Assembly: GCF_013122565.1 (NCBI RefSeq)
Contig: NZ_CP053258.1
Source of the DNA: Escherichia coli
GTDB taxonomy: Bacteria > Pseudomonadota > Gammaproteobacteria > Enterobacterales > Enterobacteriaceae
Reading direction: 5' to 3' (one strand)
DNA: 64,000 nt
Position numbers and translations under genes: made by a program. The notes beneath the pieces were generated by a model. That model was not told the origin of the DNA, did no database searches, and was given only the letters and a program-made list of their open reading frames with translations. This document shows positions 1 to 42,927 of this stretch, one piece after another. The first letter of the stretch is position 1. Each line of letters opens with the position of its first letter.

Positions 1-277
1 GAGGGATTTACAGACCAGCGGCATAGTGGGGTTGTCAGCCAGTAAGGTGGGATACAGGCACAGTGATCGACATGGTGAGGTCAACGACAAAAAAAATGTT
101 GCCGTTCTGCCAACAGTTCCTGCCAGCATTCGGGCAACGAAGGGTTCTACTGGTGGATACACATACCAGGGGAATAAAGTCGTTTTAGCCTCTCCTTTAG
201 TAATCACCGGGGGTAATGAAATCAGCATCTGCATCCCTCGTCATGCCAGCCATCAATTTCAGTTGCTTATGTCCTGA

Positions 278-805
278 CTAAAAATAAGATGTGATACCCA
301 GGGTGACGATGTCGCTCATACGTCTTAGTTTCAGCTTGTACATAATGTTGAATTTCTGAATCTTTAATGTTTGTTGCGAAATATTGAGCGTCGACGTGAT
401 ATTGCTTTCATTTTTATTTTTCAGAATCAGTTGCATAATTTTGAACTGATTATGTGAAAAACATAATTCTGAATTCTTATGGGGCAAGTGTTTACCATAA
501 GTAATCTCAAGAAGATTTTTGATACTTTCTTTGCGGCTGACAAAATAAATAGGCGCTTTAGCTTTTAGTTTACTGATGTGATAAGGTGCCAAAACAATAA
601 TTCTCTCGGCATCTAATTTCTCCAGAAATTTAATCGCTTCTTCATCAAGGATATGATTGTGATAGGTATCAATGATAACCTTGAAGGGTTTATTGCCTAC
701 TTTTTTGATCTCTGACAGGGAATTGATTTTTATCATTTCGTGATTATCTTTCAACTGCCAAAAGCCCTGTAAAAGAAAAGAATCTTTCGTCATGAGAAAA
801 ATCAT
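278..805 (-). CDS. gadE: LuxR-family acid-resistance transcriptional activator GadE (175 aa; ORF track extends to 883 but the conserved start is MIFLMTKDSF)
   Basis: Translation matches GadE over its full length as recalled; C-terminal LuxR-type HTH; synteny with hdeD/hdeAB. Confidence 0.9.
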   Translation of the reverse strand: MIFLMTKDSFLLQGFWQLKDNHEMIKINSLSEIKKVGNKPFKVIIDTYHNHILDEEAIKFLEKLDAERIIVLAPYHISKLKAKAPIYFVSRKESIKNLLEITYGKHLPHKNSELCFSHNQFKIMQLILKNKNESNITSTLNISQQTLKIQKFNIMYKLKLRRMSDIVTLGITSYF

Positions 806-1603
806 AACTTGCTCCTTAGCCGTTATCGTTTCGAACATGTCATCCTTTTCATTATTTACATCCTTGTCCGAATCGTTGTTCAATATAGTAAACGCCTATA
901 AGAACTTTGCCCTTCGTGAACTAATACGTCTATTAACACTAATCAATACTTCAGATTTATCCATCACGCACTCCATATATTGATCCTAAGTAAAATTCCT
1001 GGTTGTTATCAATTTGTAAACAGTGAACAAAAAGTTAACGTTTGCGGATTACTGCCCAAGAATAAGTTATCAATAACCAGTTTGTGATCTCTGAAGAATA
1101 TTACTAAAGTTAAAATGTAATCCGATTTAAATATCGAGTCTCCTTGTTTCGACTTAAGCTGGCAATTGGATTGCCAGCTTTCTTTTAACGCATTGAAATT
1201 ACCTGAGTAAATAACGCATTCATGTCTTCAGGTTTTTATATAGCGTCTGGAGACACGGATATTTATGCAATGTAATCAACGCCAGTTGCAATAAAATGAA
1301 CCCGGATTACTTATTTAACCGCCCATATCATCAACGCTTACGGAACTCTTTGTTCACTTTCCCACAGCACTTTTAAAACATTAAACCTGACTACGGAAAA
1401 TATCAGCCATGATAATGTTTGAAATGGCTAATTTGCCATGGAATGAAAAAATTTAGATTAAATTCAGTAGGTTGAAATAATCACCAGCAGGTGATTATTT
1501 CAATGATAGTGCGAAAATGATCTGCAACGCTGTGAAGCGGAGAGAGTATTAATTAGATCATAGTCACATCAAGTGACTATGATCCAGATGACAACCGGGA
1601 TAA
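806..1603. promoter_or_regulatory. Long gadE upstream control region / hdeD-gadE intergenic (~800 bp, AT-rich, no convincing ORF)
   Basis: Non-coding AT-rich stretch between divergent-convergent AFI genes; established knowledge that gadE has an unusually large multi-promoter control region (an antisense sRNA, ArrS, is reported here in K-12 but I cannot place it precisely). Confidence 0.5.
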
Positions 1604-2176
1604 TTATTGCTGCTTAACGAACAAACTGGCGAAGCTGAACAGGCTGGCGGCGCTAAATATCAGTTCAATTCCCACCAGTGTCGAAACCAGCGTTACAGAC
1701 ACCATCGGCGTTGCACCAAGGAATATCCAGGCAATGACGATATCCAGCACACCAATAACGAGCTGTAGCCAGCTGCCTTTCATTGAACGCTGACGATACC
1801 AACTCATCAGGCGAATAACCCCTGCAACACAGAACAAACCGGCAATAAATGCCGCTATGGCAAAAATGCCCAGCTCCGGTGCGCGGATGAAGAAATAGCC
1901 GATCAATAAATAGGCGACTGCGACGAGGAAACCGGATAATACCGGCCAGAAATTATGACTGCGGTTGCTGAATAATCCAACAATAAGCGCAATGCCCGAG
2001 CAGATTAATAATGCACCCACTACCGTGCTTAAAATATCGCCAGAGACGAACGGGAAACTGATACACAGCAACCCGACGATAAACAGCAGCACGGCAATAA
2101 ACTGGATTGCTCTGCGATGTTTTTTAAGCATCTCCAGATCAAACTTCAAAATTGTTGCCTTATCTATATATAACAT
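1604..2176 (-). CDS. hdeD: Acid-resistance inner membrane protein HdeD (190 aa)
   Basis: Multi-TM hydrophobic translation matching HdeD; position divergent from hdeA. Confidence 0.9.
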   Translation of the reverse strand: MLYIDKATILKFDLEMLKKHRRAIQFIAVLLFIVGLLCISFPFVSGDILSTVVGALLICSGIALIVGLFSNRSHNFWPVLSGFLVAVAYLLIGYFFIRAPELGIFAIAAFIAGLFCVAGVIRLMSWYRQRSMKGSWLQLVIGVLDIVIAWIFLGATPMVSVTLVSTLVGIELIFSAASLFSFASLFVKQQ

Positions 2177-2430
2177 AGAACCACCCTATAAAATTAAGAA
2201 GAAAATCCCCTGCTATCAATCTATGCCAAAAACGCGTCTAAGAATGCAGTCGATTTAATAAAAATTTCCTAATTACAGTATCTGATGCATCTGTAACTCA
2301 TTGTATTGAAATAAAAATATCTGATTTTGATATTTTCTATCAACATGACATATACAGAAAACCAGGTTATAACCTCAGTGTCGAAATTGATTCGTGACGG
2401 CTCTTTCACTTTATAGTTGAGGATATTACG

Positions 2431-2763
2431 ATGAAAAAAGTATTAGGCGTTATTCTTGGTGGTCTGCTTCTTCTGCCAGTTGTGAGCAATGCAGCGGATG
2501 CGCAAAAAGCAGCTGATAACAAAAAACCGGTCAACTCCTGGACCTGTGAAGATTTCCTGGCTGTGGATGAATCCTTCCAGCCAACTGCAGTTGGTTTTGC
2601 TGAAGCGCTGAACAACAAAGATAAACCAGAAGATGCGGTTTTAGATGTTCAGGGTATTGCAACCGTAACCCCAGCTATCGTTCAGGCTTGTACTCAGGAT
2701 AAACAAGCCAACTTTAAAGATAAAGTTAAAGGCGAGTGGGACAAAATTAAGAAAGATATGTAA
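2431..2763 (+). CDS. hdeA: Periplasmic acid-stress chaperone HdeA (110 aa, signal peptide)
   Basis: Translation MKKVLGVILGGLLLLPVVSNA... matches HdeA; followed by hdeB. Confidence 0.95.
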   Translation: MKKVLGVILGGLLLLPVVSNAADAQKAADNKKPVNSWTCEDFLAVDESFQPTAVGFAEALNNKDKPEDAVLDVQGIATVTPAIVQACTQDKQANFKDKVKGEWDKIKKDM

Positions 2764-2878
2764 TTCCGGGAATGCGTTACATCGTACTTCCTTGCATATT
2801 GAACAGGCCGGAATATCTTCTTAAAAAGCAGCTATTCCTCCTGTTCATATATAATCTCTATATTGAATGGGTTACAAA

Positions 2879-3205
2879 ATGAATATTTCATCTCTCCGTA
2901 AAGCGTTTATTTTTATGGGCGCTGTAGCGGCTTTGTCACTGGTAAACGCACAATCTGCGCTGGCAGCCAATGAATCCGCTAAAGATATGACTTGCCAGGA
3001 ATTTATTGATCTGAATCCAAAAGCAATGACACCGGTTGCATGGTGGATGCTGCATGAAGAAACAGTATATAAAGGTGGCGATACTGTTACTTTAAATGAA
3101 ACCGATCTCACTCAAATTCCTAAAGTGATCGAATACTGCAAGAAAAACCCGCAGAAAAATTTGTATACCTTCAAAAATCAAGCATCTAATGACTTGCCGA
3201 ATTAA
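2879..3205 (+). CDS. hdeB: Periplasmic acid-stress chaperone HdeB (108 aa from MNISSLRK)
   Basis: Translation matches HdeB; signal peptide; ORF-track start at 2867 is probably 12 nt too long. Confidence 0.9.
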   Translation: MNISSLRKAFIFMGAVAALSLVNAQSALAANESAKDMTCQEFIDLNPKAMTPVAWWMLHEETVYKGGDTVTLNETDLTQIPKVIEYCKKNPQKNLYTFKNQASNDLPN

Positions 3206-3268
3206 TGAGGTACAAGTAAAAAGGAGTAGCAAGTTGAGCCATCTTGCTGCTCCTTTTTGCATTTTTAT

Positions 3269-3916
3269 ATGACAGCAGAATTTATTATACGTCTTATACT
3301 CGCGGCAATTGCCTGTGGCGCTATTGGCATGGAAAGGCAAATGCGCGGCAAAGGAGCAGGGTTACGCACACATGTATTAATTGGCATGGGAAGCGCCCTG
3401 TTTATGATTGTTTCGAAATATGGTTTTGCTGACGTGCTGTCTTTAGATCACGTCGGACTGGACCCCAGCCGTATTGCTGCTCAGGTGGTGACGGGCGTCG
3501 GGTTTATCGGTGCAGGTAACATTCTCGTTCGTAACCAAAATATTGTAGGTCTCACGACGGCAGCGGATATCTGGGTGACCGCCGCCATTGGTATGGTTAT
3601 TGGCAGCGGTATGTACGAACTGGGTATTTATGGTTCAGTGATGACCTTGCTGGTGCTGGAAGTCTTCCATCAATTAACCTTCCGCCTGATGAACAAAAAT
3701 TACCATTTACAGCTGACATTAGTGAACGGTAATACGGTATCAATGCTCGACTGGTTTAAGCAGCAAAAAATAAAAACGGATTTAGTTTCGTTGCAGGAAA
3801 ATGAAGATCATGAAGTGGTCGCCATTGATATCCAGCTTCATGCCACAACGTCGATAGAAGATCTGTTGCGATTATTAAAAGGTATGGCAGGGGTGAAAGG
3901 CGTTTCAATTAGCTAA
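3269..3916 (+). CDS. yhiD: MgtC-family inner membrane protein YhiD (215 aa)
   Basis: Translation from MTAEFIIRL... matches YhiD; hydrophobic N-terminal MgtC-like domain. Confidence 0.85.
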   Translation: MTAEFIIRLILAAIACGAIGMERQMRGKGAGLRTHVLIGMGSALFMIVSKYGFADVLSLDHVGLDPSRIAAQVVTGVGFIGAGNILVRNQNIVGLTTAADIWVTAAIGMVIGSGMYELGIYGSVMTLLVLEVFHQLTFRLMNKNYHLQLTLVNGNTVSMLDWFKQQKIKTDLVSLQENEDHEVVAIDIQLHATTSIEDLLRLLKGMAGVKGVSIS

Positions 3917-7744: not shown

Positions 7745-9034
7745 TTACAAAGTGAAAGAGAGACGTAGCGCCAGCGCAGCCAGCGTCACAAACAGCACAG
7801 GCAGGGTCATGATAATCCCTGTACGGAAGTAATATCCCCAGCTGATAGTCATATTCTTCTGCGAAAGTACGTGCAGCCAGAGTAGCGTTGCCATGCTACC
7901 AATTGGGGTAATTTTCGGTCCCAAATCGCAGCCAATCACGTTGGCATAAACCATCGCTTCTTTGATAACGCCAGATGCCGTGCTGCCATCAATGGACAAT
8001 GCGCCAACCAGTACCGTCGGCATATTGTTCATAATAGAAGAGAGGAAGGCGGTAAGGAATCCGGTGCCGAGCGTCGCGGCCCACAGGCCGTTATCCGCCA
8101 GCACGTTGAGTACGCCAGAAAGATATTCCGTTAACCCGGCATTGCGCAGGCCATAAACCACCAGATACATGCCGAGCGAGAAGATGACAATCTGCCAGGG
8201 CGCACCGCGCAGCACTTTACCCGTATTAATCGCATGACCGCGTTTAGCGACGACAAATAATATCAGCGCACCCACTGCCGCAATGGCGCTGACCGGAATG
8301 CCGAGCGGTTCCAGGACGAAAAATCCCACCAGCAGAAGCAGTAAAACAACCCAGCCAGTTTTGAACGTAGCAGGATCTTTAATCGCTTCTGCGGGAGATT
8401 TCAGCAGCGCCATGTCGTAGTTCTGCGGAATATCTTTGCGGAAATAGAGATGCAGCATCATCAGCGTGGCAACAATTGCGGCGATATCCACCGGCACCAT
8501 CACCGAGGCATATTCGCGAAAGCCGAGGCCAAAGAAATCTGCGGAAACGATATTCACCAGGTTGGAGACAATAAGTGGCAGGCTGGCGGTATCGGCAATG
8601 AATCCGGCCGCCATCACGAACGCCAGCGTCGTGCCTTTACTGAACCCTAAAGCCAGCAGCATAGCGATGACAATCGGTGTCAAAATAAGCGCCGCGCCAT
8701 CATTGGCAAACAGGGCGGCAACGGCGGCACCGAGCAGGACAATCCAGGTAAACAGCAAGCGACCACGACCATTACCCCAGCGTGAGACGTGCAGCGCCGC
8801 CCATTCAAAAAAGCCGGACTCATCCAGCAGCAGGCTGATGATAATGACGGCAATAAACGCAGCCGTCGCGTTCCAGACGATATTCCACACCACCGGAATA
8901 TCACCCGGATGAACCATGCCCGTAATTAACGCCAGAACTGCGCCGAGCGTTGCACTCCAGCCGATGCCTAAACCTTTCGGCTGCCAGATAACCAATACGA
9001 TGGTCAGGACAAAGATAGCGCCTGCCAGTAACAT
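7745..9034 (-). CDS. arsB: Arsenite efflux pump ArsB (429 aa from [13 protein letters not shown] track extends 7 codons further upstream)
   Basis: Polytopic membrane protein matching ArsB; operon arsRBC. Confidence 0.9.
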
Positions 9035-9087
9035 AATGCCTCCCGGATAAAACACATGTGCAAATCCATATGTGTTTAGCTAAATTT

Positions 9088-9441
9088 TTAACTGCAAATG
9101 TTCTTACTGTCTGCGGAACAGTTTTGTCGAGCCAGGTTGCGGACAATTGCCTGAATCTTTTCCTGTTCACATCGCCAGGCCTCATCAATAATTTTCGCCG
9201 CCCATGCTGGAATATGCGGCGATAAGCGGTAATGAACCCACTTACCTTGCTTGCGGTCCAGCAATAGCCCACTTTCACGCAGTAATGCCAGATGGCGGGA
9301 TATCTTGGGCTGCGACTGATCGAGGGCAGTGCAGAGATCGCAGACGCATAACTCTCCCAGCTCGCTGAGCAGTAAAACGATGCCCAGACGGGTTTCATCG
9401 GCAAGAATTTTGAACAGTTGGATGGGTAACAGAAATGACAT
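9088..9441 (-). CDS. arsR: ArsR/SmtB-family arsenic-responsive repressor ArsR (117 aa)
   Basis: Translation contains the ELCVCDLC metalloid-binding motif and a winged HTH. Confidence 0.9.
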   Translation of the reverse strand: MSFLLPIQLFKILADETRLGIVLLLSELGELCVCDLCTALDQSQPKISRHLALLRESGLLLDRKQGKWVHYRLSPHIPAWAAKIIDEAWRCEQEKIQAIVRNLARQNCSADSKNICS

Positions 9442-9591
9442 ATTGCGCTCCTGATTGTTGCAGGTAGTGTCTCTCTTCGAAGCGGATAAGTCAAAAACAT
9501 ATATGTTTTAACGAATGCGTATGTGCAGAGAAAGGTAATAGATGTGAGTTAAGAGTTGGGTATTTATTGGAAAAGACCTGAATCAGGACGT

Positions 9592-9620
9592 AAAAAAACC
9601 GACTTTGCGTCGGTTTTTTA
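9592..9620. terminator. Bidirectional rho-independent terminator-like hairpin (A-run, ccgac-ttt-gcg-tcgg stem, T-run)
   Basis: aaaaaaaccgactttgcgtcggtttttta: GC stem flanked by A7 and T6, so it can terminate on either strand. Confidence 0.6.
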
Positions 9621-9736
9621 CTTTCCAGCCCTGAGTTGGTGGCTCTGGCTGGAGTGAGATAGTCATCATCTAACGCATCAATGCTAATACCATACTGAAA
9701 CTATTGCAAGGACGTGCTGGTTTTATAACCCGCAAG

Positions 9737-9756
9737 TACTGTATGATTATCCAGTT
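9737..9756. promoter_or_regulatory. LexA (SOS) box, probably the dinQ promoter operator
   Basis: TACTGTATGATTATCCAGTT fits CTG-N10-CAG with an AT-rich core; lies in the arsR-gor intergenic where K-12 has the LexA-regulated dinQ/agrAB locus. Confidence 0.6.
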
Positions 9757-9831
9757 AGCTCTGAGACATTTTCACTCTGGCAATGCGCTTGACATCCTCC
9801 ACGCCCTGAATGACGAGGATCCCTGCTACGT

Positions 9832-11040
9832 TCAGGCTGTCGCCTGAATCATTTCGGTGGGTTCCTGCTTCAACGAGCGGCCTGACTGCACCCTCTCTCC
9901 ACAGGCAAGAACGGCGTGCCCCGCCGCTAAAATGTTACGAGCGCCGTTTACATCGGCGTTCGCTGTATATCCACATACCTGGCATCTGAATTTACTTTGT
10001 GACAGGCGGTTCTCTTTCGCTGTATGACCACAGTACGCGCAACGCTGGCTTGTATACGCTGGCGGAACAGCAAGCACCTGACCGCCACGCCAGAGCTGCT
10101 TGTACTCAAGCTGGCGGCGCATTTCATACCAGCCCTGATCCAGTATCGAACGGTTTAAACCTGATTTTGCCCGGACATTGCGCCCCGGCTGGCTGACCGT
10201 ACCCGCTGCTGACTTTGACATGTTGCTGACCTTCAAATCCTCAATGACTATCATTGCGTGGTTTTTGCTGACGGTCGTTGTGACTTTGTGAAGGTAGTCC
10301 CTGCGGATATTTGCGATACAGGAATGCAGTCGCTGTATTTTGCGTTTCTGCTTCTGCCAGTTGTTGCTGAATTTGACCCTGCGGCTTAACTGTCGCTGAA
10401 GTCTCGCCAGCGTCTTCTGGTTTTTCTGAAAACTGTTTACAGGCTCAAAGACTGTGCCATCTGACAGCGTGGCGAGTTTAGCCACGCCAGCATCCAGCCC
10501 GACCATTGATGCTGAAGGGTGAACCGGAGTGGATACTTCACTTTCTGTCTGAATACTGATGTACCACTTACCGCAGGACTGGCTGACAGTGACATTTTTC
10601 ACAACTCCCGTGACCTGACGGCTATTCCGGTAGCGCATCCAGCCCAGTTTCGGCAGAAAAATACGGCTGTTTTCCTGATCGAGCTTAACGCCCTGCGGGT
10701 AGCGGAATGCATCATCCTGTCCCCGCTTTTTGAATCGGGGAAAAGCAGCCCGCTTCCGGAAGAAGTTTTTGTAAGCCCGCTCAAGGTCTTTCAGTGACTG
10801 TTGCAATGGCTGTGAGGGCGAATCTTTAAGCCATTGCGTTTCAGTGGCGTTTTTCCACTCAACCAACCAGGAAGCCATTTTCCCGTAAGGGATGTATTTA
10901 TTACCGGCCTCATGATTCTCATTCTGACGTGCCAGAGCACGATTGAAAACGAAACGACATGCGCCTGCGAAGCGCCTAATTTCACGCTCCTGTTGACCAC
11001 CGGGCCTTAACTGGAATTTAAATGCCTGTAGTCGTTTCAC
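9832..11040 (-). CDS. tnpB: IS605-family TnpB/OrfB (RuvC-like nuclease with C-terminal zinc finger, 402 aa)
   Basis: Translation has the OrfB_IS605 layout, including the C-terminal CxxC...CxxC zinc ribbon (CAYCGH...CQVCGY) followed by [10 protein letters not shown]. Confidence 0.8.
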
Positions 11041-11047
11041 AGGTCAA

Positions 11048-11514
11048 ATGATACTTTGGTCTGTGAAAAAAGAAACCGATATCCGGCGTGGAAGGCATTG
11101 TGTTTTCCTGATGCATGTTCACCTGGTCTTTGTCCCAAATACCGACGCCAGATTTTTGACCATGACGCGACAGAAAAACTACGCACTTACTTTTCAAATG
11201 TATGTGCTGATTTTGAAGCTGAACTGGTTGAAATGGATGGCGAACCAGATCACGTCCATTTGTTAATTAACTATCCTCCCAAACTGGCGATATCCAGTCT
11301 GGTAAACAGCCTCAAAGGCGTATCGGGTAGGTTACTGCGACGAGATCGACCAGATATTGCAGTCAGGTATTACTACAAAGGCGTTTTGTTGAGTCCTGGC
11401 TATTTTGCCAGTAGCTGCGGAGGTGCGCCAATATCCGTCATCCGCCAATACATTGAACAACAGCAAACACCTGGTCAGGTGGAAAACCGCGCCTTATATC
11501 CCCGCCCTGAATGA
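11048..11514 (+). pseudogene. tnpA: IS200-like Y1 (HuH) transposase TnpA, apparently disrupted by a -1 frameshift near codon 30
   Basis: N-terminal motif HCVFLMHVHLVFVP is in the frame starting at 11048; the rest (PKYRRQIF...HVHLLINYPPK...LKGVSGRLL) is in the frame starting at 11056; the shift is in an A-run (cccaaatac where cccaaaatac is expected) around 11137-11142. Confidence 0.6.
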
Positions 11515-11535
11515 ACGGGGTTTTACGGCGCACCG

Positions 11536-11613
11536 GATAAAGCAATCATCGTTCTTGGGGCGTTAATTGCGCTGCTGGAACTGCTCCGCTTTCTGCTTCA
11601 GCTTCTGAACTGA
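11536..11613 (+). pseudogene. dinQ: dinQ remnant: type I toxin peptide coding sequence (…DKAIIVLGALIALLELLRFLLQLLN) lacking its own start codon and directly abutting the IS right end
   Basis: In-frame translation up to the stop at 11611-11613 matches the DinQ hydrophobic peptide as recalled (K-12 MIDKAIIVLGALIALLELIRFLLQLLN); no ATG/GTG precedes DKAII here. Confidence 0.6.
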
Positions 11614-11630
11614 TAGCGGAAACGTAACTA

Positions 11631-11662
11631 AGGGCAAAGAGCACACCACTCTTTGCCCTTTA
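11631..11662. terminator. Hairpin terminator between convergent dinQ and gor
   Basis: agggcaaagag-cacaccact-ctctttgccct perfect 11-bp stem immediately 3' of the gor stop (11667) and of dinQ. Confidence 0.65.
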
Positions 11663-11666
11663 ACAT

Positions 11667-13019
11667 TTAACGCATTGTCACGAACTCTTCTGCCGCCGTT
11701 GGGTGAATGGCGACGGTATTGTCGAAGTCTTTTTTGGTTGCGCCCATCTTCAGCGCCACCGCGAAGCCCTGCAACATTTCGTCCATACCAAAGCCAATGC
11801 CGTGAATACCGACAATCTTCTCTTCTGGCCCAACGCACACCAGCTTCATGCGGCACGGCTGGCGGTGAGTGGTGACGGCGGTATACATCGCGGTGAAAGA
11901 GGATTTATACACTTTCACCTGATCGTCGCCGTACTGCTCGCGCGCCTGCGGTTCCGTTAAACCAACAGTACCAATCGGCGGATGGCTGAAGACCACGGTC
12001 GGAATGTTGCTGTAATCCAGATGCTCATCCGGCTTGTTATTAAACAGGCGTTCAGAGAGGCGGCGACCCGCTGCAACTGCCACCGGTGTCAGTTCTACTG
12101 CACCCGTGTTATCGCCCACCGCGTAAATACCTTCAATGTTGGTGTTTTGATATTTATCGACGACGATATAGCCTTTTTCGTTGGTTTTAACGCCAGCGGC
12201 TTCGAGGTTGATGTTGTCATTGGCAGGCTCGCGACCAATCGCCCAAATCAGGCAATCCACCGTTTCACTGCGACCATCTTCCAGCTCCAGCGTCAGGCTA
12301 CCATCGGCATTTTTCACTACCGCTTTCGGGATGGCGTTGGTGTGCAACTGCGAGCCTTCGGCGTTCATCACTTCGACCAGCGTTTCAGAGATCATCGGGT
12401 CGAAGCTGCGCAGCGGCGCATGTTTACGCACAAACAGATGCGTTTTCGCGCCGAGGCCGTTAATCACGCCCGCCAGCTCAACGGCGATGTAACCCGCGCC
12501 AACAACCGCCACGCGCTCTGGCAAAGCAGGAAGGGCGAAGAAGCCATCAGAATCAATACCGTATTCCACGCCCGGAATATCCGGGTGGCTCGGACGACCG
12601 CCGGTGGCGATCAGAATATGATCGGCCGTGATGGTTTCACCGTTAACTTCCAGCGTTTTGGCATCAACGAAGCGGGCAAAGCCTTTGATTACATCAACGT
12701 TATTTTTACCGAGCACGTTTTCATAGGAAGTATGAATACGGTCGATATAGGCGGTACGGCTGGCGATCAACGTTTCCCAGTTGAATTTATTGATCGTGGT
12801 ATCGAAACCATAATCCGGACCGTACATGTGGATCGCTTCACGGATTTGCGCCGCGTGCCACATCACTTTCTTCGGTACGCAGCCGACGTTCACGCAGGTG
12901 CCGCCCAGCTCTTTGGCTTCAATCAGCGCGCATTTCTGACCGTACATAGCCGCGCGGTTGATGGAGGCAATACCGCCGCTGCCGCCGCCGATGGCGATGT
13001 AATCATAGTGTTTAGTCAT
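11667..13019 (-). CDS. gor: Glutathione reductase Gor (450 aa)
   Basis: FAD-binding GGGSGG N-terminus, redox-active [10 protein letters not shown] motif; full-length match to Gor. Confidence 0.95.
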
Positions 13020-13090
13020 GACAGAGTGTCCTTATCGTTGATTACCGCGATTGTAGCGCGAGACGTAATAGGTGCCAGCGATGGCTGCAA

Positions 13091-13933
13091 TTACTCCGGC
13101 ACGATCCAGCTTACGGTGGCGTGCCCGGTGCCAGCCGGAACCAGTTTGCTGTGCAGCCACGGCAGCACGTTATTCATCTGCTGTTCCAGCTTCCACGGCG
13201 GGTTAATCACAATCATGCCGGAAGCGGTCATGCCACGGCGATCGCTGTCTGGCAGTACCGCCAGTTCAATTTGCAGAATTTTGCGAATGCCAGTCGCTTC
13301 CAGGTCGTGGATCATGCGCTTAATTTGCTGACGCAGCACCACTGGATACCACAATGCGTAAGTGCCAGTGGCGAAACGTTTGTAGCCTTCTGCTATCCCG
13401 CTGACCACCGCCTGATAGTCGATTTTCATTTCATACGGCGGGTCGATAAGGATTAAACCACGGCGGGAAACCGGCGGCAGCTTGGCTTTAAGCTGCTGGA
13501 AACCGTCGGCTTTTTCCACGCGTGCGCGGCTGTCTTTCTGAAATTCAGAACGCAGCAACGGGTAATCGCTCGGGTGCAGTTCGGTCAGTTGCAGGCTGTC
13601 CTGTTCACGCAGTAACTGACGAGCAATCAACGGCGAACCGGGGTAGTAACGCAACTGACCGCTACGGTTGAAGTGTTTTACCACATTGATGTACGGCTCA
13701 AGCTCCGCAGGCAAATCGTCCTGCTGCCAGATACGGGCGATACCTTCGAGATATTCGCCGGTACGCTCGGCATGTTCGCTGCCTAACTGATAACGCCCGG
13801 CCCCTGCGTGGGTATCGAGATAGAGAAACGGTTTATCTTTCTCTTTCAGCGACTCGATGATCAGGCTCTGAACGGTATGTTTAAGGACGTCGGCGTGGTT
13901 GCCAGCGTGAAAGCTGTGGCGATAACTGAGCAT
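13091..13933 (-). CDS. rlmJ: 23S rRNA m6A2030 methyltransferase RlmJ/YhiR (280 aa from MLSYRHSFHAGN)
   Basis: Translation matches RlmJ; synteny between gor and prlC. Confidence 0.85.
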   Translation of the reverse strand: MLSYRHSFHAGNHADVLKHTVQSLIIESLKEKDKPFLYLDTHAGAGRYQLGSEHAERTGEYLEGIARIWQQDDLPAELEPYINVVKHFNRSGQLRYYPGSPLIARQLLREQDSLQLTELHPSDYPLLRSEFQKDSRARVEKADGFQQLKAKLPPVSRRGLILIDPPYEMKIDYQAVVSGIAEGYKRFATGTYALWYPVVLRQQIKRMIHDLEATGIRKILQIELAVLPDSDRRGMTASGMIVINPPWKLEQQMNNVLPWLHSKLVPAGTGHATVSWIVPE

Positions 13934-14040
13934 GGGTAAAGGTGTTCCGGTAAGTAAAAATCGGCCCGTATTCGGGGCGCACAAAAGTCTATCAGGACAG
14001 TATACCGAAAAGAGGCCGCCGCCGCGAAAGCGTAACGTTT

Positions 14041-33714: not shown

Positions 33715-33990
33715 ATGAGAACCAAGGTACAGGCTTTACGGAAGAAACAAAAAAATACATTGGATCAAATATTTAAAACTCCTGTTCCTCAAGGGATCAA
33801 GTGGTCTGATATAGAGTCACTGGTTAAAGCATTAGGCGGAGAAATTAAGGAAGGAAGAGGTTCGCGTTGTAAGTTCATACTAAATATGAGCGTTGCGTGT
33901 TTCCATCGGCCTCATCCGTCGCCAGATACCGATAAAGGCGCTGTAGAAAGCGTGCGTGACTGGTTACTAAGTATAGGGGTAAAACCATGA
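33715..33990 (+). CDS. Putative HicA-like (YcfA family) type II toxin, 91 aa
   Basis: Small basic protein with a ...GSRCKF...FHRPHP...LLSIGV... pattern resembling HicA mRNA interferases; 4-nt overlap (atga) with the following RHH gene. Confidence 0.5.
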   Translation: MRTKVQALRKKQKNTLDQIFKTPVPQGIKWSDIESLVKALGGEIKEGRGSRCKFILNMSVACFHRPHPSPDTDKGAVESVRDWLLSIGVKP

Positions 33991-34346
33991 TCAAACTGAA
34001 GACGCCAAACTCTATGGAGATTGCCGGGCAACCTGCTGTTATCACTTACGTGCCAGAACTGAATGCATTTCGTGGCAAATTCCTGGGCTTGTCAGGTTAT
34101 TGTGATTTTGTCTCTGACAGCATTCAGGGGCTGCAAAAAGAAGGGGAACTTTCCCTGCTAGAGTATCTTGAGGATTGTAAAGCTGCGGGTATTGAGCCGT
34201 ATGCGCGTACAGAAAAGATTAAGACCTTTACGTTACGCTATCCAGAATCGCTGAGTGAACGCCTTAATAATGCGGCTGCGCAGCAACAAGTCTCTGTTAA
34301 TACCTATATTATTGAAACACTGAATGAGCGTTTGAATCATTTATAA
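33987..34346 (+). CDS. Putative HicB-like antitoxin with C-terminal ribbon-helix-helix, 119 aa
   Basis: C-terminal RYPESLSERLNNAAAQQQVSVNTYIIETLNERL is a CopG/RHH-type DNA-binding motif; translationally coupled to the upstream small ORF. Confidence 0.5.
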   Translation: MIKLKTPNSMEIAGQPAVITYVPELNAFRGKFLGLSGYCDFVSDSIQGLQKEGELSLLEYLEDCKAAGIEPYARTEKIKTFTLRYPESLSERLNNAAAQQQVSVNTYIIETLNERLNHL

Positions 34347-34465
34347 ATTTTAGCGGCGTACATTACGCAGAATATCTGCCTTTACAGGATCTATCTATGC
34401 AACTGAACTTAATTTTATAAATTAAGTTCAGTTAATATCTTTTCTTTCCTCGTTTTAGAAATAAC

Positions 34466-37269
<2,804 letters not shown>

Positions 37270-37273
<4 letters not shown>

Positions 37274-38214
37274 GCGTGCGCTCCTTCATGACGACGAATG
37301 CGCGGGTCCAGCGCGGCGTTTAGCAAATCGACAATCAAATTACAGACCACAAAAACCACCACCATCATCAGCGTAAAGCACTGGATCACCGGATAGTCAC
37401 GGTTAAAAATCGCCGACACCGCATAGCGCCCGACGCCCGGCCAGGCAAAGATGTTTTCGATAATCATCGTCCCGCCAATCAGTTCGCCAATGTGCATCCC
37501 CACGGCGGTGATCATCGGCAGCGAGGCATTGCGCAGAATATGACGACGTTCGGTCTGTTTGTCGTTCAGGCCGCGCAGCCGCGCCCAGGTGACGTGACGC
37601 TGACCGGCGACGTCCAGCATACTGGCGCGCAGCAGCCGCGCGTTAATCGCCAGCGACATAAAGGCAATGGAAACCGCAGGCAAAATGATGTGCTGCCAGC
37701 CGCCGTAGCCCATCGCGGGTAGCCATTGCAGATACACCGAAAACGCCATCACCAGTAAAAACGCCAGCCAGAAGTTAGGCATCGACACGCCAAGAAACGC
37801 GATGAAACGTACGGCGAAATCCGGCAGACGATCGCGATGGCGCGCCGCCCAGATACCGAGCGGCACGGAAGTGAGCAGAATTAATACCAGCGCGGCACCT
37901 GCAAGTTCCAGCGTGGCGGGCAGGAAGTTCAGCATATCGTCCAGCACCGGGCGTTGGCTGGCGAATGAGATACCAAAGTCAAGATGCAGCGCCTTCCACA
38001 ACCAGGTACCGTACTGGACGTACAGCGGCTGATCCAGTCCCAGCATGGTGCGGGTAGAGGCCAGCATCTCCGGCGTCGGCGGCAGGTTAGACAGACGCAA
38101 ATAATCGAGCGCCGGGTCGCCGGTACCGAGGCGCAGCATCAGAAAAATGATCACCGAGGCGGCGAGCACCATCGGGATCAGCAGCAGAAAGCGGCGTAAT
38201 ACGTAACGCAACAT
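37270..38214 (-). CDS. nikB: Nickel ABC transporter permease NikB
   Basis: Membrane permease; operon position. Confidence 0.9.
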
Positions 38215-39788
38215 TAAGGTTTCACCGGTTTAATCTGTTCGAACGGAATTTCGGTGGCGATCGGCGCGTAGGGGATGTTACCCAGCTCCGGTTTTGATAC
38301 CACCATCATTGAGATGTAACTGATAGGCAGATAAACCGCCTCGTCATGCAGACGGGTCAGAATGTCGCGATACAGTGCCTGACGTTGTGCTTCGTCATGG
38401 GTCGCCAGCACTTCGCCGATCTCTTTATCAATCAGCGGCTTGTCGGCTAATCCTTGCTGTGCCTGGAAATCAGCGTGCGACGGTACGCGCATTGAACTCA
38501 GGAAGGCGTGTGGATCGTATGGCGCGCCCCAGGTGCGGTGGAAAATCATGCCAAAACGACCGTCGCGCTGACGAGCATAGATACTGCTCTCTTCTTCGCC
38601 AATCAGCGAGACATCTGCGCCAATCTGGCGCATATCAGCCTGAATGATTTCCGCCATCGATTTGCTTAACGCATCGGTGCCGATGAACGAAAGTTCAATG
38701 CGCAGCGGCTGACCATTTTTCTCGCGGATGTCTTTGCCCGCAGGAAGCGTCCAACCGGCTTTTTCGAGCAACTCTTTCGCTTTCTGCGGATCGTACTGGC
38801 GCGGTTTCAGGCCGAGGTTGGCGTAGGGCACAGAAGGGGCAAACAGGGTGTCGGCGACCTGCTGGGTGCCATACAACGCGTTATCAATCAGCGATTTTTT
38901 GTTTACCGCGTAATTAAGAGCTTCACGTACTGCCAGCTCGTTGGTAGGGGCTTTGGCGGTGTTGAGCGCCAGCATCACGGTTTCGATCGGCTGTGACAGT
39001 TGGGTGTGGTACGCCGGATTCTGGCTAAAGCGGGCGAAAGTATCGAGCGGTAATAACCCTTCATTACCGTACAGCAGGTCGATATCGCCAGTTTCAAACG
39101 CCACCGCGCGGGTAGTCGGGTCCGGGATCACGTTAAAGGTGATCTTTTTAATCGCCGGCTTTTCGCCCCAGTAGTTTTCGTTACGGACGAAGACATCGTA
39201 CTGATTCAGTTTCGATTCCTGCAAAACCCACGGCCCGGTGCCAATCGGCGCTTTAATCCCGTTCATGGTTTCATGGTTTTTAAACTGCGAGGGGGCGATA
39301 AAGCGGAAAGGACGTGGCAGGGCCAGTTCTTGCAGGAAAGGATAGTAGGCGCTTTTCAGGGTGATTTGCAGCTCGTTTTTACTGAGTGCTTTGACATCAA
39401 CAATCTGGTTTGCCAGCTCCAGCCAGGCGTGACGTTGACGGTTATCGAGCACTGCGCGGAAGTTTTCTGCCGCCGCCTCTGCATCAAACGGTTCGCCGTT
39501 AGAGAATTTCACGTCATCACGCAGGGTGAAGGTCCAGGTTTTACCATCTTCTGAATGAGTCCAGCTTTTTGCCAGCCACGGGATCACCGAACCGTCTGCC
39601 TGATATTTCACCAATGGTTCATAAACCATGCTCTGGGCGAACATCTGGTTAGGCGTGTAAAGGTGCGGGTTTAGTGGCCCGACATTCACCGGCCAGGCGG
39701 TGGTGATTTCATCTGGTGCAGCGGCATGGACGATAAAAGACGCACAAGCCAGCAGCGCAAATAGAGTGCGGCGGAGTGTGGAGAGCAT
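38214..39788 (-). CDS. nikA: Periplasmic nickel-binding protein NikA (524 aa)
   Basis: Signal peptide plus family-5 solute-binding protein; operon position. Confidence 0.9.
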
Positions 39789-39825
39789 GGTAACCCCAAT
39801 GGATTAAAATAGATGGCGGAAATAA

Positions 39826-39853
39826 GTATGACGATTTTAAGTATTCGTCATAC
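39826..39853. promoter_or_regulatory. NikR operator in the nikA promoter
   Basis: GTATGA-N16-TCATAC perfect dyad (gtatgacgattttaagtattcgtcatac), 38-65 bp upstream of the nikA start. Confidence 0.8.
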
Positions 39854-39898
39854 TGATTACCTGTTCTGGATCAATAGATGGGCAGTCGGGTGGGCGGA

Positions 39899-40486
39899 TC
39901 AGTTAACTGAATCGATCCATTGCACACTGTCGGCGGTGAGCGTAAAGGGAGTAGGGGTGCAGATCGCCAGGCTTAAATTTTCTAGCTGACAATGGCTGAC
40001 TGACAGCGAGGAGTGATAGGTGCTGTCTACGCTGACGATTTGCCAGGCGCTGCCACCACGCTGTTTAACGATGGCTTCTTTGCGCGTCCAGATGCGCCAG
40101 AACATTTCCAGTTGCTGATCAGGATGCACGGCGTCCATCTCAGCGTGTTCCCCGAGGCTGAATACGGCGTTCGCCAGCCAGCGCCAGTTGGCGCGCGGGC
40201 GAATCACTTCGATATCGCAGCCGACTTCGCCTTCATCGCTCAACAGCAGGGCGATATCGTCACCGCTATGGCTTAAGTTGAACCATAGCGGCGTTTCCGG
40301 CGCGAATGCCGGTTTGCCTTGTTCGCCATAGATGATCTCCGGTAGCGGGGAAAGCGTGTGCGAAAGCAATGCACGCCCCGCCAGCCAGCGTTCGCGTCGT
40401 GGACCTTGCGGTGCTTGCTCGCGTAAACCCGGTGGCAGTGGAGCTGCGCTTAAGGTCGAAACTTTCCCCAGAACTATCCGATACAT
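39899..40486 (-). CDS. acpT: 4'-phosphopantetheinyl transferase AcpT/YhhU (195 aa)
   Basis: Translation matches AcpT; synteny next to nikA. Confidence 0.85.
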   Translation of the reverse strand: MYRIVLGKVSTLSAAPLPPGLREQAPQGPRRERWLAGRALLSHTLSPLPEIIYGEQGKPAFAPETPLWFNLSHSGDDIALLLSDEGEVGCDIEVIRPRANWRWLANAVFSLGEHAEMDAVHPDQQLEMFWRIWTRKEAIVKQRGGSAWQIVSVDSTYHSSLSVSHCQLENLSLAICTPTPFTLTADSVQWIDSVN

Positions 40487-40540
40487 ATCAGGGCCAACGT
40501 ATAATGGAAAATGAAAGTGCGTATCGTATCACTTGTCGCC

Positions 40541-41590
40541 TCATCCCGGTAACCGACTTTTCGGTCTGCCCGGTCCCAGTAAAATCGCCAGTTTGCTACC
40601 GCCTTTCGTAGTTTCCATCCAGATTTTACACACGCTGGTTAATGGCACCGAAAGTAGCATCCCTACCGGGCCGAGCAGCCATCCCCAAATTAACAATGAA
40701 AGAAATACCACCATGGTGGACATCCCCAGGCGATGGCCCATCATCCGTGGCTCTAAAATATTGCCGATGACCATATGGACAACTAAAAACAATGCGCCGA
40801 CCAGAATACATTCGTAAATACCATTAAACAGCAGCACCTGAATCATTGGCGGTACGGCGGAAATTACCGCGCCGATATTAGGCACGTAGTTGAGCAAAAA
40901 CGCCAGTACTGCCCACATCAGCGCAAACTGCACCCCCATCAGCTCCAGCCCCAGCCAGACGATGACACCCGTCCATAAACTGAGTAGCGTCTTTAACGCC
41001 AGATAATGCGAAACGCCTTTAAGTGCGCGGTGTAATCCCGCGATGTGAATCTGTGGGTTATTCAGCGCAAAACGCATTTTGTAAGGGACGTGGCGCACTT
41101 CAAACAGCATAAAAACTACGGTCATCACCAGCAGAATTACGCTCGCCATTGCCCCGGAAAGCCCGGTCATTAGCGCCGTGGTGAAGGTAACCACTTTTTC
41201 CGAGTCCATCCGCTGCAGCATTCGCTCTGGCGACATATGCAAATTAAGAAAAGGCAACATCTCCTGCAATTTAAAAAGTTTGCGCGTCAGCTCCTTATTA
41301 AACTTCGGCAGCATAGAGATAAATTCGTTAAACGATGCCGCCAGTACGCCAACCAGCGCGGTTAGTGCGATCAGCATCACCACCACCACAATCGTAATGG
41401 CAACGGGGCGTTTTACTCCCCGTCGAACAAACCAGGTAACGAGCGGGTTGAGGACGATGGCAAAAAACAGCGCCAGTAACAGCTGCACAATGATATCTGC
41501 CGCTGCGTGAATGCCCGCGAGGATCACTACCAGCGAGGCCAGCTTGAGCAGAATGTGCATGCCCGTTTTATCGGGTTGAGGGGTTTCCAT
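40541..41590 (-). CDS. yhhT: AI-2E (UPF0118) family transporter YhhT (349 aa from METPQPDKTG)
   Basis: Polytopic membrane protein; synteny. Confidence 0.8.
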   Translation of the reverse strand: METPQPDKTGMHILLKLASLVVILAGIHAAADIIVQLLLALFFAIVLNPLVTWFVRRGVKRPVAITIVVVVMLIALTALVGVLAASFNEFISMLPKFNKELTRKLFKLQEMLPFLNLHMSPERMLQRMDSEKVVTFTTALMTGLSGAMASVILLVMTVVFMLFEVRHVPYKMRFALNNPQIHIAGLHRALKGVSHYLALKTLLSLWTGVIVWLGLELMGVQFALMWAVLAFLLNYVPNIGAVISAVPPMIQVLLFNGIYECILVGALFLVVHMVIGNILEPRMMGHRLGMSTMVVFLSLLIWGWLLGPVGMLLSVPLTSVCKIWMETTKGGSKLAILLGPGRPKSRLPG

Positions 41591-41709
41591 TGGGGCTTCC
41601 TTGTGACTTTTTGTATTAAGTGTAGCGGGAGTCACGCCAGCAATATTCTGATTCTTACTGCTGATTTTCACGTCAGCACGTGGTAAAAATGAAACACTGT
41701 TGTAAAAAT

Positions 41710-42927
41710 GTGGTGATCCTCATGCCCGAACCCGCGCTAAACGGATTGCGCCTGAATTTGCGCATTGTCTCCATTGTCATGTTTAACTTCGCCAGCTACC
41801 TCACTATCGGGTTGCCGCTCGCTGTATTACCGGGCTATGTCCATGATGTGATGGGCTTTAGCGCTTTCTGGGCAGGAGTGGTTATCAGCCTGCAATATTT
41901 CGCCACCTTGCTGAGCCGCCCTCATGCCGGACGTTACGCCGATTTGCTGGGACCCAAAAAGATTGTCGTCTTCGGTTTATGCGGCTGCTTTTTGAGCGGT
42001 CTGGGATATCTGACGGCAGGATTAACCGCCAGTCTGCCCGTCATCAGCCTGTTATTACTTTGCCTGGGACGCGTCATCCTTGGGATTGGGCAAAGTTTTG
42101 CCGGAACGGGATCGACCCTGTGGGGCGTTGGCGTGGTTGGCTCGCTGCATATCGGGCGGGTGATTTCGTGGAACGGCATTGTCACTTACGGGGCGATGGC
42201 GATGGGTGCGCCGTTAGGTGTCGTGTTTTATCACTGGGGCGGCTTGCAGGCGTTAGCGTTAATCATTATGGGCGTGGCGCTGGTGGCCATTTTGTTGGCG
42301 ATCCCGCGTCCGACGGTAAAAGCCAGTAAAGGCAAACCGCTGCCGTTTCGCGCGGTGCTTGGGCGTGTCTGGCTGTACGGTATGGCGCTGGCACTGGCTT
42401 CCGCCGGATTTGGCGTTATCGCCACCTTTATCACGCTGTTTTATGACGCTAAAGGTTGGGACGGTGCGGCTTTCGCGCTGACGCTGTTTAGCTGTGCGTT
42501 TGTCGGTACGCGTTTGTTATTCCCTAACGGCATTAACCGTATCGGCGGCTTAAACGTAGCGATGATTTGCTTTAGCGTTGAGATAATCGGCCTGCTACTG
42601 GTTGGCGTGGCGACTATGCCGTGGATGGCGAAAATCGGCGTCTTACTGGCGGGGGCAGGGTTTTCGCTAGTGTTCCCGGCATTGGGCGTAGTGGCGGTAA
42701 AAGCGGTTCCACAGCAAAATCAGGGGGCGGCGCTGGCAACTTACACCGTATTTATGGATTTATCGCTTGGCGTGACCGGACCACTGGCTGGGCTGGTGAT
42801 GAGCTGGGCGGGCGTCCCGGTGATTTATCTGGCGGCGGCGGGACTGGTCGCAATCGCGTTATTACTGACGTGGCGATTAAAAAAACGGCCTCCGGAACAC
42901 GTCCCTGAGGCCGCCTCATCATCTTAA
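41710..42927 (+). CDS. yhhS: MFS transporter YhhS (about 405 aa, probable GTG start)
   Basis: 12-TM MFS-type translation; synteny. Confidence 0.8.
   Translation: MVILMPEPALNGLRLNLRIVSIVMFNFASYLTIGLPLAVLPGYVHDVMGFSAFWAGVVISLQYFATLLSRPHAGRYADLLGPKKIVVFGLCGCFLSGLGYLTAGLTASLPVISLLLLCLGRVILGIGQSFAGTGSTLWGVGVVGSLHIGRVISWNGIVTYGAMAMGAPLGVVFYHWGGLQALALIIMGVALVAILLAIPRPTVKASKGKPLPFRAVLGRVWLYGMALALASAGFGVIATFITLFYDAKGWDGAAFALTLFSCAFVGTRLLFPNGINRIGGLNVAMICFSVEIIGLLLVGVATMPWMAKIGVLLAGAGFSLVFPALGVVAVKAVPQQNQGAALATYTVFMDLSLGVTGPLAGLVMSWAGVPVIYLAAAGLVAIALLLTWRLKKRPPEHVPEAASSS

Follow-up and report, generated by a model that had tools for sequence, protein, structure and literature searches.

Among the closest described systems, IS608 of H. 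pylori and ISDra2 of D. radiodurans insert 3' of a short specific sequence, without duplicating it, and carry subterminal hairpins. In E. coli the catalogued element is IS609, whose K-12-type copy lies adjacent to ydcO and carries tnpA and insQ. A search of the literature on insQ/TnpB in E. coli returned nothing relevant; the papers on IS609 are inventories, apart from one mutation-accumulation study that saw no transposition of the single copy in K-12 (PMC5009759).

Here we characterize an IS609 copy in the window, that is, the whole 64,000-nucleotide stretch of DNA that was analysed. A first-pass annotation of the letters had described the tnpA gene of an IS element, encoding a Y1 HuH transposase, as split by a -1 frameshift. 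We conclude, with high confidence, that this tnpA is a pseudogene in a non-autonomous copy which retains an open tnpB and its ends; the pseudogene reading is the best explanation of the locus.

By its genes, its ends and its DNA identity to annotated E. coli copies (97-98.8%), window 9789-11536 (1748 bp) is a copy of IS609, of the IS200/IS605 family, on the minus strand and with divergent tnpA and tnpB. The top strand of the element corresponds to the minus strand of the window, with LE at 11536 and RE at 9789, where the minus-strand terminus reads ...GGATGTCAA. Over its whole length the element is 98.7% identical to the ydcO-adjacent copy (L002), which PGAP names 'IS200/IS605-like element IS609 family transposase' and on which the comparison with the named element rests. 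IS609 was matched by megablast in 5,424 of 5,426 complete E. coli genomes, which together have about 8,000 copies bearing tnpA. Within the window, a BLAST search of the element against the whole sequence returned only the element itself; in a set of genome contigs, neither a gapped tnpA pattern that allowed for both alleles nor an invariant 30-mer of the gene gave a match.

The boundaries of the element were set by rebuilding the empty sites of two other insertions, at yajI and at yfeD, in which left flank, ATAAA and right flank form 200/200 contiguous bases in IS-free genomes. Each rebuilt site holds a single ATAAA/TTTAT, so the target site is not duplicated; the absence of terminal inverted repeats and of duplication, and the site-specific 3' insertion, are thus those of the IS200/IS605 family at these two sites. 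At the window's own locus the insertion was accompanied by a 165-bp loss, and the empty-site test was carried out at yajI and yfeD instead. IS609 inserts directly 3' of TTTAT on the tnpB-sense strand, while its opposite end reads ...GTCAA. In the window, the pentanucleotide 5'-TTTAT-3' (ATAAA on the plus strand) occupies 11537-11541 on the minus strand, directly 5' of LE, and is not duplicated. The same motif occurs once in both rebuilt empty sites and adjoins every copy examined, and the data therefore yield a clean TTTAT target for IS609. We presume that TTTAT is the left cleavage site of TnpA and the TAM of TnpB, the latter role by analogy with known IS200/IS605 elements.

Subterminal hairpins can be drawn at both ends on the same strand, with weak statistical support. 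The LE hairpin (11500-11520) reads CCCCGTTC-ATTCA-GGGCGGGG on the minus strand and has a DNA fold z of -1.87. The RE hairpin (9795-9820, minus strand) was identified from sequence as ATCCTCGTCATTCAGGGCGTGGAGGAT, followed by GTCAA at the tip. A TCATTCAGGGCG core is common to both hairpins and is flanked in RE by complementary arms, read by eye, in a stem that the MFE fold does not choose as the main helix. The LE and RE hairpins (9808-9821 and 11512-11516) differ among IS609 copies, partly in parallel: the window carries CCCTGAATGA at both ends and K-12-type copies carry CCCTGAAGGA at both. Mixed types also exist, the copy of E. coli 88-3493 (L001) combining a window-type LE with a K-12-type RE and one of the yajI/yfeD copies (L004) showing the reverse. 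The RE-flank guide sequence of the window copy would be GCGCATTGCCAGAG....

The tnpA gene lies on the plus strand. Its 5' segment (11048-11134, frame A) runs from Met1 to Val29, ends in HLVFV and includes the first beta-strand, HCVFLMHVHLVFV; the ATG at 11048 is equivalent to the start that PGAP gives for tnpA in the in-frame copy L002. From this ATG, frame A reads MILWSVKKETDIRRGRHCVFLMHVHLVFVPNTDARF... and continues to a stop at 11264-11266, for a total of 72 aa. Frame B is open from 11056 to a stop at 11512-11514 and reads ...CPKYRRQIFDHD...PDHVHLLINYPPK...GGAPISVIRQYIEQQ (also given as ...CPKYRRQIFDHDATEKL...EPDHVHLLINYPPK...SCGGAPISVIRQYIEQQQTPGQVENRALYPRPE). The 3' segment of the gene in this frame (11135-11514) comprises KYRRQIF..., the HVH of the HuH motif, the RQYIEQQ helix of the catalytic Tyr and the TGA at 11512-11514. 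Frame B lies in the -1 frame with respect to frame A, and re-reading both confirmed that the N-terminal strand belongs to the frame of 11048 and the remainder to the frame open from 11056, as the annotation had stated.

Profile searches of the separate and the joined frames lead to the same view. Frame B alone matches Pfam Y1_Tnp (PF01797) over positions 11-121 of 121 (E 3.9e-35), and frame A alone has no Pfam profile match. The protein repaired by one base matches NCBIfam transpos_IS200 (NF033573) over positions 2-126 of 126, with 138.9 bits against a cutoff of 55, and aligns end to end with the structures 2F4F and 2EC2 of Sulfolobus, 2A6M of IS608 and 2XM3 of ISDra2. Frames, Pfam match and repaired-protein match thus agree that this is a Y1 HuH transposase gene whose coding capacity is present but broken by a frameshift. 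A promoter scan found no sigma-70-like site in 10900-11700.

The 3' end of the gene differs from that of its relatives. TnpA of relatives stops just past QQQTP(G/S/D), at 138-146 aa, and both relatives and the same-locus copy L001 have TAG after QQQTPG. The window has CAG at this position (11476-11478, plus strand). With CAG, the reading frame of E. coli-type IS609 continues through the LE hairpin, mostly into flanking DNA, and the proteins in databases have variable C-terminal tails (160-254 aa); this loss of the stop probably explains the 'missing C-terminus' flag that PGAP sets even on in-frame copies. The TGA stop of the window and of L001 comes from an additional T at 11512, in the loop of the LE hairpin.

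Alignment with in-frame IS609 copies places the 1-nt deletion between 11134 and 11135 on the plus strand, where in-frame copies have GTCACCAAATAC or GTCACCAGATAC and the window has GTC-CCAAATAC. L002 reads GTC ACC AGA TAC and L001 reads GTT ACT AAA TAC, both giving a V-T-K/R-Y peptide. The missing base is the A of the Thr30 codon ACC, outside any homopolymer, and it was placed there because this is the only alignment that needs no extra substitutions. Across 11120-11150 the deleted state is GTCCCAAAT and its undeleted equivalent GTCACCAAAT; the undeleted equivalent of 11132-11139 is GTCACCAAA. On this alignment, the ancestral peptide is HLVFV-T-K/R-YRR rather than HLVFV-P-K-YRR. Twelve in-frame proteins, from Escherichia, Salmonella, Morganella, Photorhabdus, Proteus, Klebsiella and Yersinia, carry HLVFV(T/A)(K/R)YR in a single frame.

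This placement revises the first-pass annotation, which had attributed the frameshift to a lost A of the A-run in cccaaatac, at about 11137-11145. The string actually lies three bases to the left, at 11134-11142, and the in-frame copies show that the A of ACC was lost, not a base of the run. Repair to cccaaaatac does restore the frame, and the resulting V-P-K-Y is similar to what distant relatives have (e.g. CPKYRR in IS608), but copies of the element's own family have T-K/R, from ACC, and the IS609 clade has T or A in place of the proline. A fourth A in the run was rejected: it would agree with an in-frame IS609 copy only after two more substitutions, whereas restoring ACC needs none. The annotation had named, as a finding that would overturn it, a reference IS that normally encodes the N-terminal motif in this way; the split stands, since the reference-type IS609 and all relatives examined encode the region in a single frame.

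We assessed how widely the lesion occurs by searching for the exact 76-nt stretch 11100-11175, deletion included. Of the complete E. coli records, 212 contain it and 849 contain the exact in-frame version of L002; most of the approximately 4,790 other records with the segment are 1-3 positions away from either version. Eight of the 212 deletion-allele records were fetched, four with the element at yajI, where the IS splits a DUF3251 gene, and four with the element at yfeD-gltX, and PGAP flags all eight copies as 'frameshifted; internal stop'. On the strength of these comparisons the split is real and is a genuine 1-nt deletion. The deletion allele is old and widespread, and is found at no fewer than three chromosomal loci in Escherichia (yajI, yfeD-gltX and agrB-dinQ).

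The most plausible routes by which the allele spread are in-trans mobilisation of a defective element, gene conversion between IS609 copies, or both, and patterns of variation among the copies bear on this. The yajI and yfeD copies have the deletion and a TGA nonsense codon in common, yet differ at about 1.8% of positions. Two such diverged loci sharing both lesions would therefore reflect either transposition in trans of a doubly defective element or gene conversion. Overall, identity of the window copy is higher with the in-frame L002 (98.7%) than with the E. coli deletion copies (97.9%), so that a single origin of the deletion would need recombination between copies. In variable sites inspected across the dozen copies fetched, the window agrees with L002 at 10009-10054 and at 10606, and with the yajI/yfeD copies (L003/L004) at 10412 and at the deletion, while a further copy at the yfeD locus (L010) has yajI-type variants at 11050 and 11054. 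From this mosaicism, recombination between IS609 copies clearly occurs.

An independent origin of the deletion in the window copy, as opposed to inheritance or copying from yajI/yfeD-type elements, would fit the absence from the window of six other variants shared at yajI and yfeD, the TGA included, and its backbone closer to the in-frame L002. We regard it as unlikely: the site is neither a repeat nor a run, which makes loss of the same base twice improbable, and the clear mosaicism between copies makes recombination the simpler route. Recurrence would in any case alter the history alone and not the nature of the feature.

Further changes indicate that tnpA is decaying in the copies that carry the deletion. 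In the window, a G>T change at 11390 turns the codon 11389-11391 (plus strand) into TTG (Leu), where other copies have TGG (Trp) in LWSPGYF. Among the copies and relatives compared, this W->L change is unique to the window allele, the copy in GCA_052983875.1 included. The corresponding W115 column, in LW(S/T)xxYF, is nearly invariant in relatives and holds Trp in 2F4F, 2EC2 and 2A6M, and W->L is probably a second damaging change. The eight sampled E. coli deletion copies all share the TGA at the equivalent of 11333, a codon that the window does not have. Between deletion copies, tnpA dN/dS is about 1.2-1.5; when the deep-branching L001 is one of the pair, it is 0.26-0.34, the numbers of substitutions being very small. 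By these ratios and lesions, the tnpA of the deletion copies is evolving neutrally and decaying. L001 itself, which shares the window's locus and junctions, lost its frame in another way, through loss of a G at 11380, so that inactivation of tnpA has happened at least twice in the IS609 family.

Based on these observations, we propose that the 1-nt deletion parts the first beta-strand from the HuH/Tyr core, so that normal translation would give no full-length Y1 transposase, and that tnpA would subsequently have gained W->L in a near-invariant motif. TnpA activity would thus be lost and, because the lesion blocks full-length transposase, the copy would be non-autonomous.

The pseudogene reading must be weighed against -1 ribosomal frameshifting on C_CCA_AAT (11134-11140), by which an attenuated but autonomous element would make low levels of full-length TnpA. 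This heptamer lies precisely at the lesion and, read in the zero frame, conforms to X_XXY_YYZ; slippage would restore exactly the wild-type length with P-N replacing T-K, and the allele is present at three loci. Trace synthesis of a P-N TnpA, in a self-attenuated lineage that spread autonomously to these loci, is nevertheless very improbable in our judgement. Of what defines a programmed frameshift, the slippery heptamer is there, but a downstream stimulatory RNA structure is not (MFE -12.7, shuffle mean -12.3, z -0.16; 79/200 shuffles fold at least as well), nor is a conserved two-frame state under purifying selection: the single frame is ancestral and found in most copies, and a split frame is a derived, minority condition. 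Downstream of the lesion, the window copy has W->L, every one of the eight sampled E. coli deletion copies has an in-frame TGA, and dN/dS is 1 or higher. In E. coli, moreover, ribosomes slip poorly where the A site must shift from AAU to AAA, A_AAG being the better sequence. We know of no recoding-controlled transposase previously reported in the IS200/IS605 family, and this would be the first if the frameshifting reading were true.

A sequencing or assembly error, with the gene really in frame and one base miscalled, is scarcely credible, even though single-base indels are the commonest assembly error. The first-pass annotation had offered a homopolymer error as one option, a suggestion that fails on three counts: the missing base, GTC[A]CC, lies outside the run; the identical 76-nt allele is in the 212 complete records; and a look-up with the exact TnpB sequence retrieved one other assembly, GCA_052983875.1 (contig JBRJJH010000007.1), with the IS at the same locus and 100% identity over a 1753-bp span (element plus ATAAA), deletion and W->L included. 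The tract identical to this assembly covers 9651-11825 of the window (2175 bp), and the flanks differ by 1.7% on the left and 2.4% on the right. Because of this divergence, the window and GCA_052983875.1 represent different genomes. The arrangement points to a recently exchanged segment of about 2.2 kb, shared through homologous exchange between diverged Escherichia lineages. Over the stretches checked (11560-14000 and 30000-42000), even the best of the 5,426 complete RefSeq E. coli genomes reaches no more than 98.0-98.3% identity to the host backbone, which places the host in an Escherichia lineage not represented among them.

Production of a functional, shortened TnpA from an internal start in frame B (e.g. 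TTG at 11056) is the least probable reading, with next to no chance of being correct, since this frame, although open for 152 codons and containing the HuH and Tyr motifs, has unrelated sequence in place of the first beta-strand of the core sheet, begins its Pfam coverage at model position 11 (against 2-126 for the repaired protein), has no Shine-Dalgarno-like sequence ahead of 11056 and also carries W->L.

On the other hand, tnpB (insQ; 9832-11040, minus strand) is intact, as the annotation had claimed: it is an open reading frame of 402 aa with a GTG start, all domains and a complete profile match. Pfam identifies HTH_OrfB_IS605, OrfB_IS605 and Cas12f1-like_TNB, so that the combination of OrfB_IS605 with a zinc-ribbon/TNB domain, by which an accessory tnpB is recognized, is present. 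NCBIfam guided_TnpB matches over the complete profile with 381.7 bits, and the protein matches the ISDra2 TnpB structure 8EXA with E 4e-56. The motifs GLDAGV and VIEDL, one further 10-residue motif and two CxxC pairs are visible in the sequence. Relative to other copies, the window tnpB has no stop or indel.

Selection on this gene appears less certain. Pairwise dN/dS of tnpB between copies is 0.3-0.5, while in the window lineage 6/8 of the changes unique to its tnpB, counted from variant tables, are nonsynonymous. This suggests that tnpB, though open, may no longer be under selection in the window lineage. It is also damaged in 3/8 of the sampled E. coli deletion copies. The annotation had added that tnpB often outlives tnpA, with which this copy is consistent, although a single copy is no specific demonstration of it. 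For RNA features, Rfam gave no curated omega-RNA family in 8800-12000, where AgrB alone scored above threshold. Below threshold, RAGATH-18 scored 29.6 bits (gathering score 44.9; E 0.008) within the 3' end of tnpB, at 9862-9905 on the minus strand, which is where a TnpB element should have its omega-RNA scaffold.

The annotation's remaining option, a non-autonomous copy that can be mobilised in trans, stands in its first part, as the lesions and the intact ends fit non-autonomy. For a TnpA supplied in trans, the copy would still offer TTTAT, a hairpin at either end and the terminal TCAA, and mobilisation should be possible in principle by analogy with the IS608 and ISDra2 models, in which TnpA reportedly acts on such end features (Ton-Hoang 2005, Barabas 2008, He 2015).

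The insertion site has itself been altered. More than simply interrupting the dinQ locus, the IS609 copy has taken the place of part of it (window 9777-9788 and 11537-11613, compared with 2300-2560 of the O157:H7 locus, L005). With respect to this empty site, 160 bp and one of two ATAAA (TTTAT) motifs are missing, and the lost stretch holds the start codon, the first four codons and the 5' leader of dinQ, leaving codons 5-27 of this type I toxin gene (11542-11613). Both end points of the deletion lie exactly at IS609 target motifs, which is consistent with insertion of two copies that later recombined with each other, or with an event mediated by TnpA. Six E. coli genomes (e.g. 88-3493) have these dinQ junctions as well.

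The antitoxin RNA gene is kept at this locus though the dinQ toxin gene is without its start. AgrB, the antisense regulator of dinQ, is matched by Rfam with 108 bits at 9590-9673 on the minus strand. The arsR-side flank of the window aligns twice to the O157:H7 locus (L005 1588-1981 and 2102-2311), which suggests that the window has a single agr gene where O157:H7 has the agrA/agrB pair.

Taken together, the locus is of an already known kind, an ordinary instance of a catalogued element whose deletion allele is labelled 'frameshifted' in RefSeq. It should be annotated as a non-autonomous IS609 copy with a frameshifted tnpA pseudogene, rather than as two ORFs or as an assembly error. The occurrence of a defective allele at several loci, the mosaic copies and the loss of dinQ are leads on in-trans mobilisation, gene conversion and IS-mediated deletion, respectively. 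The side findings hold no new kind of system, but have some value for work on TnpB and on IS200/IS605 elements.

Compared with K-12-type IS609, the window element has the same divergent layout, with start codons 7 bp apart, the same ends, the same 402-aa TnpB and 98.7% DNA identity. It differs in the one base missing from tnpA codon 30, in W->L, in two changes of the RE hairpin, in the extra T at 11512 of the LE hairpin with its TGA stop, and in its location between agrB and dinQ. The frameshifted IS609 pseudogenes of RefSeq (e.g. IAI39 at yajI and RM14723 at yfeD-gltX) have the same 1-nt deletion in an identical 76-nt context; copies of that type add the TGA and five other shared variants, whereas the window has its own W->L. 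The TnpB-only or tnpA-less derivatives, IS1341-type and PATE-like, belong to the same outcome class, with intact ends, an open tnpB, no working tnpA and a presumed dependence on transposase in trans, but in the window tnpA is still present as a recent pseudogene and has not been deleted. With IS608 and ISDra2 the window element has in common the Y1 HuH TnpA fold family (E 2e-18 to 2A6M and 4.5e-16 to 2XM3), insertion 3' of a short specific sequence without duplication, and subterminal hairpins; its RE ends in TCAA, as in IS608. It departs from both in its target, TTTAT instead of TTAC or TTGAT, and in its inactivated tnpA, and its gene order is divergent, like that of IS605 and IS606, and not tandem.
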